The position numbers and the translations under genes are program-made. From the IMG/VR virus record IMGVR_UViG_3300029508_000035: DNA of 7,006 nucleotides; one strand, 5' to 3'. Positions 3,508-7,006 of this stretch are shown here, one piece after another. Source of the stretch: a virus. Its lineage: Duplodnaviria; Heunggongvirae; Uroviricota; Caudoviricetes. The stretch's first letter is position 1, and every line of letters begins with the position of its first letter. The notes under the pieces were generated by a model. That model was given only the letters and a program-made list of their open reading frames with translations, was not told where the DNA came from and did not search any database.

Positions 3508-4470
3508 GTGAGTTCAGGTGCAAAGGTTATCTCGGCATTTATCCGGGAGACGGTTGCAGGCACTACGCCAGCAAGTGGTGACTGGAGTTTATTAAAACGC
3601 ACAAGCTGGGGAGTAAAACCCACCCAGAATAAAGGCGAAAATAATGAGATTGGTGGCTCCCGGATGGCTCAGGGGGCGACGCCTGGCACTGTGGATGTCG
3701 GCGGTGATGTTGGTACCAAATTTCGCTGGGGTCAACATGATGATTTTCTTGCATCCTGTTTCGGCGCGGAATGGTCAGGCGATTCTCTGACAATGGGGAA
3801 TGAGCGAATAACATTTTCTCTGGCGACCTATGCGTCCGATGTCGGAATTGCCTCTGTCGTCAGAGGAGCGCAGGTTGGCTCATGGAAAATGCAGATCCCT
3901 AACGACGGCGATATTACAGCGACCGTAACCTTTGCCGGACTGGACTGGGAATCAAAGGCCGATGATACGAATTTTATCAAAGGCGAACCTGTGGATAGTG
4001 CAGGAAAGCTACGTTATTCGTTTAAGGAGGTTTCAGCAGTAAGCCTGAATGGTGTTGCCGGAGGTAACGGTTTTTGTATCGACAGTTTTGATATTCAGTT
4101 CGATAACAAACTCCAGACACAGCGTTGTATCGGGACTGGCTCGCCTTATGCAGGAGCAAATATTCCGACTACTTTTACACCGTCCGGTACGGTGACGCTT
4201 TCATGGTCTAAAGCCGCGTGGGAAATCTGGAGTAAAACACTGACTGGAGAAACAGTTCCGTTCAGCTTCACGCTTTCGAATGGAGAGGGGGCATACACTT
4301 TCAGTTTCCCGAAGGTTCAGGTGTCAGGTGAATGGCCTGATGGGGGTAATAGCGACATTATCCAGGTTCAATTGAGCATTACCGCAGCAGATGAAGCACC
4401 TACGATAACCAGAAAAAAAAATTCCCCGGCTGCCGTGATCGCAAAAGCCAGTGCTGAGGCGATTAGTTGA
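3508..4470 (+). CDS. Major tail (tube) protein
   Basis: 320-aa ORF with GTG start at 3508 preceded by AGGAGG (3497-3502). It lies between the neck genes and the G/GT chaperone pair, the canonical position of the major tail protein. Gly/Thr/Ser-rich, beta-type composition. Stop TGA at 4468-4470. Confidence 0.65.
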   Translation: MSSGAKVISAFIRETVAGTTPASGDWSLLKRTSWGVKPTQNKGENNEIGGSRMAQGATPGTVDVGGDVGTKFRWGQHDDFLASCFGAEWSGDSLTMGNERITFSLATYASDVGIASVVRGAQVGSWKMQIPNDGDITATVTFAGLDWESKADDTNFIKGEPVDSAGKLRYSFKEVSAVSLNGVAGGNGFCIDSFDIQFDNKLQTQRCIGTGSPYAGANIPTTFTPSGTVTLSWSKAAWEIWSKTLTGETVPFSFTLSNGEGAYTFSFPKVQVSGEWPDGGNSDIIQVQLSITAADEAPTITRKKNSPAAVIAKASAEAIS

Positions 4471-4518
4471 TTTTCCGTTATTCCTCCTGTGGTACTGCCC
4501 TACAGGGGGACGCATTGA

Positions 4519-4980
4519 ATGAGGTTATGGATGTTTATTCTTAATCAGAAAATTATCATTGGTGGAGAACGCTGGTTTACGCCAATGAAGGACTTAAAAC
4601 CTGTAGACGGGTTAAAACTGTTGGTGGCAAGCAGCGATAACGATCAGTATCGCTCCCGTAATGCATTAATCCGTCGCCACATTGAGAAAATGGATGCCAG
4701 TTTGCACGTCGGAACGAAGGAGTTTGATATTTCAAAGGTTTCCGAGGTGGATTCTGTTGATGATTTACTCATTGATAATGCCGCTCGTTATCTGCTGAAA
4801 GACTGGAAAGGGGTTGGTGAACTGGTTAATGGTGTTGAGGTTGCACTGGAATATACGGCAGAACGAGGGATCGCGCTGCTTAAGCAGAATCCAGAGTTGT
4901 ACTGGCAGATCCTTGCAGAAGCAGCCAGCATCGCCCAGGGTAAAGAGCAGCAGAAGCAGGATACGATAAAAAAGCCATAG
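4519..4980 (+). CDS. Tail assembly chaperone, lambda gpG-like
   Basis: 153-aa ORF with ATG 4519 preceded by AGGGGGA (4504-4510). An A_AAA_AAG slippery heptamer lies two codons before its stop, and the -1 frame stays open for a further ~100 codons. This is the lambda G/GT arrangement located just upstream of the tape measure gene. Confidence 0.7.
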   Translation: MRLWMFILNQKIIIGGERWFTPMKDLKPVDGLKLLVASSDNDQYRSRNALIRRHIEKMDASLHVGTKEFDISKVSEVDSVDDLLIDNAARYLLKDWKGVGELVNGVEVALEYTAERGIALLKQNPELYWQILAEAASIAQGKEQQKQDTIKKP

Positions 4981-5288
4981 CTGCCCAGCGGTGGTTATCG
5001 GAGTTCGGGGGAGAAAGGGGGGAAAAGGCAAGATGGAAGCGAGAAAAACTCAGGTTGCCACCGATACCGGAACCAGAAATAGACCCGGTGCTTAAGGAGT
5101 TGTTGTACGCCTATTCGGTAATATCCCGTGCCCGACGTTATGCTGGAATGGCTGGGGTGCCTTTGCCTTTATCTCTGACAGAGATAAATGAATATTTAGC
5201 CACTCATCCGGTATTGATTGAGCGCGATGAATTTGAAGCAGTGATCTTTGCACTGGATGACCAGTATTTTCAGGAGCAGTGTGTGTAG
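4519..5288 (+). CDS. Tail assembly chaperone G-T fusion produced by programmed -1 ribosomal frameshift (lambda gpGT-like)
   Basis: The -1 frame is open from 4944 to the stop TAG at 5286-5288. The slip site A_AAA_AAG at 4968-4974 is in the X_XXY_YYZ register of the G frame. Predicted fusion reads ...DTIKK|AIAAQRWLSEFGGERGEKARWKREKLRLPPIPEPEIDPVLKELLYAYS...QEQCV (~256 aa). The track's free-standing 5055..5288 ORF starts at a TTG with no RBS, so separate initiation is unlikely. Confidence 0.6.
4968..4974 (+). other. Programmed -1 frameshift slippery heptamer A_AAA_AAG
   Basis: Sequence ataAAAAAGcca: codons ATA-AAA-AAG in the G frame give A_AAA_AAG, the same heptamer used by E. coli dnaX. It lies in the 37-nt overlap between the G frame and the open -1 frame. 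Confidence 0.65.
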
Positions 5289-5408
5289 TTGTTAATTACG
5301 TACACTCTGTTACAGAGATGTGATGGTGTCTTTAATTAAATCGATGATGCTCCTGGAGAAAAGCATTGCGTGGCCTCGTAATCGCTATATCTACTATTAT
5401 GTCGCCTG

Positions 5409-5436
5409 AAACCCACTTCGCGGTGGGTTTTTTGTT
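5409..5436 (+). terminator. Intrinsic terminator-like hairpin in the gap between G-T and the tape measure gene
   Basis: AAACCCAC-(TTCGCG)-GTGGGTTT stem-loop (about 8 bp, 5409-5430) followed by a run of T residues (5428-5433). It sits 18 nt before the tape measure ATG and its AGGAG (5440-5444). Confidence 0.5.
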
Positions 5437-5453
5437 GTCAGGAGTTTTAATAA

Positions 5454-6931
5454 ATGGCAGAGCAAACCTCGCGTCTCGCAATAATTATTGATAGCACTGG
5501 AGCGAAAAATAATGCTGACAATCTGACCTCCTCATTAGTCAAAATGACGCAGGCTGGGGAAACTGCTGCAAATAGCGCAGGGAAAGTGACTAAGGCAACA
5601 GAAGATGAGAAGAACGCGCTCGCAAAATTAAAAGCAGCTATTGATCCAGTTGGTGCCGCAATTGATACTGTCGGTCGACGCTATTCTGAATTAAAGAAAT
5701 TTTTCGATAAAGGGCTTATTGATAAAGAAGAATATGAATTTCTTGTCCGTAAACTTAATGAAACCACAGAGGAATTGAGCGGGGTTGCGCAAGCGCAGAG
5801 AGAAGCCGAGAAGGCCGGAAAACTTGCTGCCGCCCAGCAGGAAGCGCAGGCTCAGGCCTTTCAAAGAATGCTGGACAAGATCGACCCTCTGGCTGCGGCG
5901 CTAAGAAATCTTGAACAACAGCATGATGAACTTAATGCTGCGTTTGCATCCGGGAAAATAAATGGTTCTCAGTTTGAGAATTATAGCCGAAAAATACAGG
6001 AAACACGGCGAGAGCTTACCGGAGAGGCTCAGGCAGAGCGAGAAGCAGCAAAAGCGCATGATGAACAGGTTGTTGCTTTGCAACGTCTGATTGCTCAACT
6101 TGATCCTGTCGGAACTGCTTTTAATCGTCTGGTAGAACAACAGAAACAGCTCAATGAAGCAAAAGCTAAGGGGATGCTTTCTCCTGAAATGTATGAGGAG
6201 CTTTCTGGAAAACTTCGTGCTATGCGGAGTGAGCTTGAGGTTACTCAATCACAATTAAGCAAAACCGGAATGTCGGCAAAACAAACGGCTTTTGCTATGC
6301 GCATGTTGCCTGCACAAATGACGGATATTGTTGTTGGGTTGTCCACTGGTCAGTCGCCATTTATGGTGTTAATGCAGCAGGGCGGCCAGCTAAAAGATAT
6401 GTTCGGTGGGATTGGCCCGGCGATCAAAGGTGTAGGTTCTTATGTGCTGGGATTAGTTAATCCTTTTACCCTAGCCGCAGCAGCCGTTGGGGTCTTAGGA
6501 CTGGCTTACTATAAAGGCTCTCAGGAGCAGGACGAATTTAATAAATCTCTTATTCTTACCGGAAATCAGTTGGGGACAACCAGCGGGCAATTGGGCGATA
6601 TAGCTCAACGTGCCGGGAATGCGGCTGATTCGACAACTGGTGCTGCGGCGGCAGTATTAAATCAGCTTGTGCGTTCGGGAAAGGTAGCGAGCAGTTCGCT
6701 GGAGCAAGTGACGACAGCGATAGTAAAAACGAGCGAAGTAACAGGAATATCAACCGAACAACTGGTTAATGACTTCAATGAAATTGCAAAGGATCCTGTC
6801 AGTGCCATATCAAAACTTAATGATCAGTACCATTTTCTGACACTTGCGACTTATAACCAGATTAAGGCGCTACAGGATGAAGGGAACCAGCAGGAGGCCG
6901 CCCGCATTGCGACAGAAGAATACTCATCCTC
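5454..6931 (+). pseudogene. Tail tape measure protein, lambda gpH-like, 5' portion; disrupted by an IS1 insertion at 6931/6932
   Basis: ATG 5454 with AGGAG at 5440-5444. From memory, residues ~275-390 match the conserved N-terminal region of lambda gpH: [39 protein letters not shown] vs lambda [39 protein letters not shown], and [12 protein letters not shown] vs DFNKTLVLSGNQ. The frame runs into IS1 sequence at 6932 and stops at 6951-6953, after only ~493 gpH-like codons, whereas a full tape measure is typically >800 aa. Confidence 0.8.
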
Positions 6932-6954
6932 GGTAATGACTCCAACTTATTGAT
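6932..6954. repeat. IS1 terminal inverted repeat (IRR, 23 bp)
   Basis: GGTAATGACTCCAACTTATTGAT matches the IS1 right inverted repeat as I recall it. It directly abuts the tape measure coding sequence at 6931. Confidence 0.85.
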
Positions 6955-7006
6955 AGTGTTTTATGTTCAGATAATGCCCGATGACTTTGTCATGCAGCTC
7001 CACCGA
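6947..7006 (-). CDS. insB: IS1 transposase InsB, C-terminal fragment (5' part outside the window)
   Basis: The minus-strand frame entering at 7006 translates to [19 protein letters not shown] with stop TAA (complement of 6947-6949), matching the InsB C-terminus as I recall it. Confidence 0.8.

Follow-up and report, generated by a model that had tools for sequence, protein, structure and literature searches.

The tail module and its G/T locus

The analysed stretch of DNA (7,006 nucleotides, here called the window) is the tail module of a Rac-type lambdoid prophage of the ydaY family. The genes stand in the order tail tube gene, G, T and tape measure gene, and this synteny is defined by the tube gene as the upstream neighbour. 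The features on which the following discussion depends are these:

3508 to 4470, + strand: tail tube (major tail) gene (Pfam PF18906 Phage_tube_2, E 9e-32; PGAP "phage tail tube protein")
4531 to 4980, + strand: open reading frame of a G-type tail assembly chaperone (ydaY family), 149 aa, with the stop codon TAG at 4978-4980
4958 to 4961, + strand: AGGA, a possible weak Shine-Dalgarno-like element 6 nt 5' of the heptamer
4968 to 4974, + strand: slippery heptamer A_AAA_AAG in X_XXY_YYZ phase, with AAA and AAG as P-site and A-site codons
4974 to 5288, + strand: T segment in the -1 frame, 104 codons plus the stop codon TAG at 5286-5288 (frame open from 4944 to 5288; PHROG 1189, E 1.4e-36)
5454 to 6931, + strand: 5' part of the tape measure gene (Pfam PF06791 TMP_2, E 6e-82), cut by the end of an IS1 element from 6932

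The initial annotation had placed the end of a G-like frame at 4980, the heptamer A_AAA_AAG at 4968-4974 and an open -1 frame between 4944 and 5288, and all three were confirmed, including the X_XXY_YYZ phase of the heptamer. G has its conserved start at ATG 4531 and not at ATG 4519, with GAGG 6 nt upstream of ATG 4531, and the zero frame ends with the codons GAT ACG ATA AAA AAG CCA TAG. After a slip by one base the reading would be GCC ATA GCT GCC CAG CGG, which gives the predicted junction ...DTIKK/AIAAQRWLSEF..., in agreement with the junction ...TIKKAIAAQR that had been proposed; the predicted junction-spanning sequence of GT contains DTIKKAIAAQRW. The first ATG, GTG or TTG of the T frame is TTG 5055, which lies 27 codons past the slip, and the T-frame peptides AIAAQR and WLSEFGGER are encoded 5' of any T-frame start codon. 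Between T and the tape measure gene lies a gap of 166 nt that contains a terminator-like hairpin. Judging from the sequence, the T segment would be produced solely within a predicted GT fusion of 252 aa, as its C-terminal part.

The profile searches place both halves of this predicted fusion in one family. G matches PHROG 313 ("tail assembly chaperone") with an E value of 4.9e-46 over profile positions 15-149, and T matches the same profile weakly (E 0.0097) at positions 173-246 of its 258 positions. Since G and T match successive parts of PHROG 313, they are collinear as in a GT fusion. The match of T to Pfam PF23812 (Phage_TAC_18) is also weak. The initial annotation had proposed an alignment to lambda G and GT, and the hhalign profile comparison returned probabilities of 0.1% for lambda G and 0.2% for lambda T against the T segment, and the ECs1801 chaperone reached 0.13%, so that none of the three comparisons gave a detectable similarity. 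No lambda-type G or T family was matched in Pfam, NCBIfam holds no family for G or T, and a sequence search of the PDB with the GT profile gave no relevant match. The structure prediction for the T domain (pLDDT 60, pTM 0.29) was too poor for a fold search. By these sequence comparisons the ydaY-type family is distinct from lambda G/T and from ECs1801, and the likeness to known chaperones lies in the organisation and perhaps, weakly, in the fold.

The locus is widespread and its annotation is inconsistent. Over positions 4400-5500 the window matches Salmonella phage SPF_0923 at 100% identity and nine E. coli vB_EcoS phages at 98%, and the region was found in 1075 of 5426 complete E. coli genomes, including the Rac remnant of K-12, after which the upstream gene is named ydaY in E. 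coli genomes. RefSeq presents this gene as "protein YdaY", a product of 119 aa read from an internal TTG even in intact prophages, with the T frame omitted or fragmented. For T, the SPF_0923 record has an open reading frame that starts at TTG 5103 and the vB_EcoS-606R9 record one that starts at GTG 5088, and PGAP gives a 42-aa fragment or none, which bears out the expectation that gene callers would split the pair or miss its second member; across the database relatives the calls range from 60 to 138 aa. Slippage is annotated in none of the deposited records of this region.

The window departs from SPF_0923 at 6932, and the sequence beyond this point carries the annotation IS1 family transposase element in thousands of E. 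coli records. The intact tape measure gene of SPF_0923 encodes 1077 aa. Because the tape measure gene of the present copy is cut by IS1, this prophage probably cannot build tails, and the recoding signal in the interrupted copy may be a relic. The signal itself is intact and is identical to that of the SPF_0923 record, in which the tape measure gene is uninterrupted.

Conservation of the frame relation and of the slip site

The single sequence alone does not exceed chance. About 0.7 occurrences of AAAAAAG are expected per strand in 7 kb and two are seen on the + strand, the forward genes hold seven in-phase X_XXY_YYZ heptamers in 2098 codons, and a -1 frame is open for at least 105 codons at about 2% of codon positions. 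Two further candidates of this kind were considered and rejected. The second in-phase heptamer followed by a long -1 frame, G_GGG_GGA (2319), sits at an ordinary boundary between two genes, the second of which starts from an ATG of its own. The tube gene contains an A9 run at 4412-4420, which opens a -1 frame of only 11-12 codons and is A7 in a close relative. What lifts the site at the end of G above chance is that the relatives keep the -1 relation, the slip position and the heptamer nucleotides.

Relatives were collected by tblastn with the conceptual GT product, and more loci were added from scans of GTDB genomes and IMG/VR. Phages of four genera were found by tblastn to encode G and T in two frames, with identities of 65% for Klebsiella, 55% for Erwinia, 32% for Pseudomonas and 31% for Acinetobacter. 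The resulting set comprises 96 loci from Escherichia, Salmonella, Klebsiella, Citrobacter, Erwinia, Mixta, Pseudomonas and Acinetobacter, and G is followed by T in the -1 frame in 95 of them, with protein identities as low as 25%; the sole exception (L016) has a deletion of one nucleotide in a downstream G6 run. In an alignment of the conceptual fusions the junction occupies one homologous column, an invariant lysine encoded by AAG and preceded by A, and an in-phase NNNAAAG is present at the junction in every locus examined. The site itself differs between groups. The enteric relatives have A_AAA_AAG, Mixta and Acinetobacter share G_GGA_AAG, Pseudomonas has G_GAA_AAG, and in Erwinia C_GCA_AAG runs directly into TAA. 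When IMG/VR was scanned again, with a profile built from Pseudomonas, Erwinia and Mixta, the search added 68 further unique loci, 66 of which carry the motif exactly at the projected junction (G_GAA_AAG in 36, A_AAA_AAG in 20 and G_GGA_AAG in 10). The synteny, the match to PHROG 313 and the -1 relation in 95/96 loci together uphold the proposal that this is the conserved recoding arrangement of tail chaperones upstream of the tape measure gene.

The heptamer A_AAA_AAG is invariant in 84 loci and in 52 unique enteric sequences, and synonymous sites are saturated among the latter. The 52 unique enteric GT sequences have 104 columns in which a degenerate residue is invariant; only 7 of these use one codon throughout, and both lysine codons of the heptamer are among them (AAA 52/52, AAG 52/52); the other invariant lysine columns of these sequences mix AAA and AAG. 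The residue before the lysine pair is valine or isoleucine and its codon is always GTA or ATA. The heptamer is fixed in place, and the zero-frame stop follows it at 6, 24, 78 or 108 nt in different relatives. Since the position of this stop varies, the nearby stop is no part of the signal. In Acinetobacter phage TRS1 the homologue is already annotated as a joined CDS.

This variation suggests, as a tentative proposal to which we would give somewhat less than an even chance, that the A_AAG tetramer at the A site is the only element of the slip site that is fixed across the family and that the P-site half drifts between AAA, GGG, GGA (in G_GAA_AAG) and CGC. The non-canonical G_GAA_AAG, found in 36 unique loci of mostly Pseudomonas type, is the commonest site of that branch. 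If the non-canonical sites are functional, near-cognate or single-tRNA slippage would be enough to set the ratio of G to GT. The family comparison brings together slip sites that differ naturally at one homologous position, and if the non-canonical ones are functional, they would form a natural series in which re-pairing at the P site could be measured as a tuner of frameshift efficiency. Among the papers searched, nothing relevant was found on a frameshift in ydaY or on G_GAA_AAG as a recoding site.

Alternative explanations and the proposed mechanism

One would argue that T is an independent small gene, started from TTG 5103 or 5100, GTG 5088 or TTG 5055, and that the heptamer is incidental. 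Gene callers do annotate such frames, the sequence AAGGAG (5094-5099) stands ahead of the in-frame TTG 5100 and TTG 5103 and a short independent C-terminal fragment is possible in E. coli, and both PHROG 1189 and Pfam PF23812 treat the last 75-79 residues as a unit in its own right. However, the spacing between AAGGAG and the TTG codons is only 0-3 nt, and the candidate starts do not stay in place: the first in-frame start lies at codon 28, 33, 39, 41, 43, 49 or 59 of T among the relatives, and two Acinetobacter phages have no T start codon in the first 70 codons. Moreover, the 27-43 codons 5' of the starts are under selection at the protein level and can be aligned across genera from the slip site onwards. 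The variable columns are distributed over the three codon positions as 9/9/24 in the first 27 codons of T, as 7/5/16 in the next 16 codons and as 35/25/59 in the remainder, and dN of the T segment is 0.2-0.3 at saturated dS against Klebsiella and Citrobacter relatives. The 9/9/24 pattern together with a dN of 0.2-0.27 at saturated dS indicates that the 27-codon stretch is translated in the -1 frame. The nucleotides of the heptamer are also conserved beyond coding needs. Shifting or missing starts, combined with protein-level selection upstream of them, thus remove the independent start from serious consideration, and we hold it to be highly improbable. The earlier statement that T has no credible start of its own agrees with this, and homologues in which the downstream frame has its own start and the heptamer is not conserved were looked for among the relatives and were not found.

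The frame could also be changed at another level, by RNA polymerase slipping on the A6 run and inserting one A into the mRNA. Six consecutive A are indeed present at the site, and automated assemblies show homopolymer length errors at this run (P0002, P0004 and P0010). However, the known transcriptional sites have runs longer than 7 A or 8 T (PMC3711429), the relatives with G_GGA_AAG or G_GAA_AAG keep phase and position with runs of only 3 or 4 A, and the nucleotide ahead of the run is held to A, in phase. Ribosomal slippage is therefore favoured over transcriptional slippage, because the A run is only six long and the relatives manage without a long homopolymer, and we consider the latter very unlikely. 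Still less probable, to the point of being negligible, is the view that G and T are the halves of a single gene split by a frameshift mutation, that is, a pseudogene without recoding. It could draw on the decayed state of the K-12 Rac prophage, on the IS1 element in the tape measure gene of the present copy and on rare in-frame fusions such as P0001, but the same -1 relation is kept in 95/96 and 66/68 unique loci from at least eight genera, deposited phage genomes among them, at saturated synonymous divergence, and the fusion in P0001 arose by a 35-nt deletion between direct repeats and is not ancestral. The natural GT fusions were likewise rejected as support for recoding: P0001 is this deletion variant, whereas P0002, P0004 and P0010 are error-laden assemblies that read A5 for A6. 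Being either a deletion variant or assembly errors, the fused entries are no evidence for a recoded product.

Therefore, the interpretation as recoding holds: the -1 relation, the junction and the heptamer are conserved, the codons of T are under selection, the starts are unstable, and the homologue in TRS1 is a joined CDS. On this comparative evidence the locus is very probably a programmed -1 frameshift of the G/GT type in the tail chaperone pair of a Rac-type prophage. Most ribosomes would start on G at ATG 4531, terminate at TAG 4980 and so produce the 149-aa chaperone. A minority would pause with one tRNA-Lys on AAA in the P site (4969-4971) and another on AAG in the A site (4972-4974); both tRNA-Lys would then slip back by one base onto AAA AAA (4968-4973), and reading would restart at GCC 4974 (4974-4976) in the -1 frame and continue to TAG 5288, giving the 252-aa GT. 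On the model of lambda only, G would be the part that binds the tape measure protein and T the part that brings in the tube protein, and by analogy with lambda neither G nor GT would end up in the virion. For lambda a gpG:gpGT ratio of 30:1 is given, along with the mechanism and the roles of the two proteins (PMC5009743). In line with this ratio, we infer a frameshift efficiency of a few per cent or less for the present locus, the slippage being presumably ribosomal.

In E. coli reporters A_AAA_AAG gave 0.29, 4.3 and 39% frameshifting with no stimulator, with that of IS911 and with that of IS3, respectively, and G_GGA_AAG gave 0.28, 3.8 and 43% (PMC4066793 supplement). These nearly equal values imply that the two heptamers are functionally interchangeable in E. 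coli. The initial annotation had described the signal as dnaX-type, which is correct for the heptamer and does not extend to a stable or conserved downstream structure. Two single-sequence folds of the downstream region gave a G-U rich hairpin at a spacing of 0 nt with a z-score of 0.9 against shuffled sequences, the consensus fold of 12 relatives reached -2.6 kcal/mol with no covariation support, and an Rfam search of the whole window at E values up to 1 returned only two matches, at chance level and elsewhere in the window. Upstream, the AGGA element could possibly act as a weak stimulator. The CAG codon that supplies its AG is one of five invariant codons in the 66 columns of G with an invariant residue (52 unique sequences); this codon is invariant in the enteric clade, and AGGA is missing in the Erwinia and Mixta relatives.

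A separate observation concerns the strength of the heptamer: without a stimulator, bare A_AAA_AAG shifts only about 0.3% of ribosomes in reporters, which counts against the frameshift given that no structure was found here.

The main value of these findings lies in annotation, and the biological understanding of recoding is unchanged by them, a chaperone frameshift being what one would expect in the tail module of a siphovirus. Thousands of records would be corrected if ydaY were named as a G chaperone and the 252-aa GT product were added, and the ydaY-type Pfam families PF27119 and PF23812 would gain a functional label, with the limit that T matches PF23812 only weakly.

Comparison with known recoding systems

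The frameshift of lambda G/GT is reportedly the subject of work by Levin, Hendrix and Casjens (1993) and by Xu, Hendrix and Duda (2004, 2013 and 2014). The lambda literature is reviewed in PMC5009743. As in lambda, the present locus stands after the major tail gene and before the tape measure gene, has a short G frame with a -1 extension T that has no start of its own, and carries an in-phase X_XXA_AAG near the end of G. The lambda heptamer G_GGA_AAG, which had been quoted for comparison, was verified in the lambda sequence and is in phase. No conserved stimulatory structure is detectable here, as is reported for lambda, and the sizes of the proteins are similar (G 140 aa and T 144 aa in lambda, G 149 aa and T 104 aa here). 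Unlike in lambda, where G_GGA_AAG stands about 15 nt before the stop codon and T overlaps H, the heptamer A_AAA_AAG stands 4 nt before the stop and the 166-nt gap follows T.

The heptamer was initially seen as a variant serving in the role of the lambda site. It does differ from that of lambda, but the use of A_AAA_AAG in this role has already been documented: Sharma et al. (2014) list the cluster A_AAA_AAG_25 (ECs1801), an E. coli prophage tail assembly chaperone, and mark it as "true" (PMC4066793, Table S4), and this cluster overlaps the GeneTack programmed-frameshift cluster 10 (PMC4066793). We verified that ECs_1801 of the Sakai prophage Sp9 ends with AGA AAA AAG TAG. As in the present locus, A_AAA_AAG is found at the very end of the chaperone frame of an E. 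coli prophage, and frameshifting lengthens the product relative to that of the zero frame. The ECs1801 protein differs in its length of 124 aa and in belonging to another protein family, and its stop codon follows the heptamer directly, whereas one codon (CCA) intervenes here. An HK97-like cluster of tail assembly chaperones was reported by Antonov et al. (2013), with 6-7% frameshifting in reporters for two genes (PMC3711429).

The gamma/tau frameshift of E. coli dnaX uses the identical heptamer A_AAA_AAG, decoded by tRNA-Lys (PMC3711429). In contrast to the present locus, where no conserved hairpin and only the 4-nt AGGA are found, dnaX has an upstream Shine-Dalgarno-like stimulator and a stable downstream stem-loop, and its shift of about 50% yields the shorter product, whereas the product of the shift would be the longer one here. 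The spacings looked for in a dnaX-type signal were 5-9 nt to a conserved stem-loop on the 3' side and about 10 nt to a Shine-Dalgarno-like stimulator on the 5' side.

The true homologue among the known cases is the pair TRS1_18/TRS1_19 of Acinetobacter phage vB_AbaS_TRS1 (NC_031098). Its T is 39% identical (tblastn) and its full-length GT 25% identical to the products predicted here, the slip position is the same in the alignment, and the two-piece joined CDS of the record amounts to ribosomal slippage. The differences are the lambda-type heptamer G_GGA_AAG and the zero-frame stop, which lies 81 nt downstream in TRS1 and 6 nt downstream here. Set beside these systems, the ydaY locus is an ordinary case of a well-known recoding device that E. 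coli annotation has missed.

Candidate slip sites at the homologous junction in relatives

The slip site A_AAA_AAG (window 4968-4974) has non-canonical counterparts at the homologous position in related loci:

G_GAA_AAG: Pseudomonas-type relatives (loci L005, L006, L011, L012 and L100-L179), for example L005 1887-1893
C_GCA_AAG followed at once by TAA: L004 1986-1995, Erwinia phage Gungnir39

The G_GAA_AAG sequence is placed precisely at the junction in 36 unique loci of the Pseudomonas-type relatives, and the whole overlap contained no canonical in-phase heptamer in the four such loci that were checked in detail. No description of G_GAA_AAG as a recoding site was found in the literature searched. 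The site of Gungnir39 retains only the A_AAG tetramer, which adjoins the stop codon, and it could represent slippage of a single tRNA or an artefact of sequencing or decay.

Fused, shifted and rearranged variants of G and T

The tail assembly chaperone ORF G contains a short direct repeat:

4915-4924 and 4950-4959: two copies of the 10-bp repeat GCAGAAGCAG, 35 nt apart

A variant protein from E. coli (P0001, 240 aa, five member sequences) matches in sequence the product predicted for a deletion between these repeats. In this variant G is joined in frame with the -1 frame segment T, so that it would yield the fusion GT alone, without any separate G.

Other variants concern homopolymer runs. Locus L016, whose contig is shared with L115, has five G (at about 2990) versus six in the run at window 5022-5027, and is the sole locus in which T lies outside the -1 frame; its shortened run is either an error in homopolymer length or a mutation with an inactivating effect. 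The heptamer itself has five A, not six, in several Logan assemblies (P0002, P0004, P0010). Rearranged parts of G or T are found in the database proteins P0014, P0015, P0019, P0040 and P0123; in several database proteins unrelated terminase-like or ParB-like N-termini are attached to the C-terminal two thirds of G, and in P0123 residues 1-28 of G are followed directly by a C-terminal portion of T. Each kind of chimera marks a separate deletion junction in decayed Rac-type prophages.

Annotated start of YdaY

The RefSeq/PGAP model of "protein YdaY" has 119 aa and begins at an internal TTG (window 4621), intact prophages included:

Window 4621-4980; L099 1722-2081; L098 1493-1852: YdaY, 119-aa model

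The start of YdaY/G that is conserved across genera is the ATG at 4531, which gives 149 aa. The shorter model was apparently taken from the Rac remnant of K-12, which is truncated at its 5' end.

Neighbouring genes and the gap after T

4412-4420: run of nine A within the tail tube gene, at its 3' end
5408-5431: terminator-like hairpin GAAACCCAC-TTCG-GTGGGTTTT, then a T run
6932-7006: end of an IS1 element (GGTAATGACTCCAACTTATTGATAGTG...), where the window departs from the tape measure gene

The -1 frame at the nine-A run is open for just 11-12 codons and the close relative L056 has seven A, therefore this run is probably not a recoding site.

The tape measure ORF ends at 6953 after 499 aa because the window passes into the IS1 end at 6932; its counterpart in the Salmonella phage record SPF_0923 has 1077 aa. 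The prophage copy in the window is probably defective. A lambda-type G_GGA_AAG is present in phase inside the tape measure gene at 6677-6683, and the -1 frame is then open for 28 codons.

The T stop is separated from the tape measure start by a non-coding gap of 166 nt (window 5289-5453), inside which the hairpin lies. The same gap contains one to several additional small genes in the Klebsiella and Pseudomonas relatives, so the gap resembles a place where morons insert.
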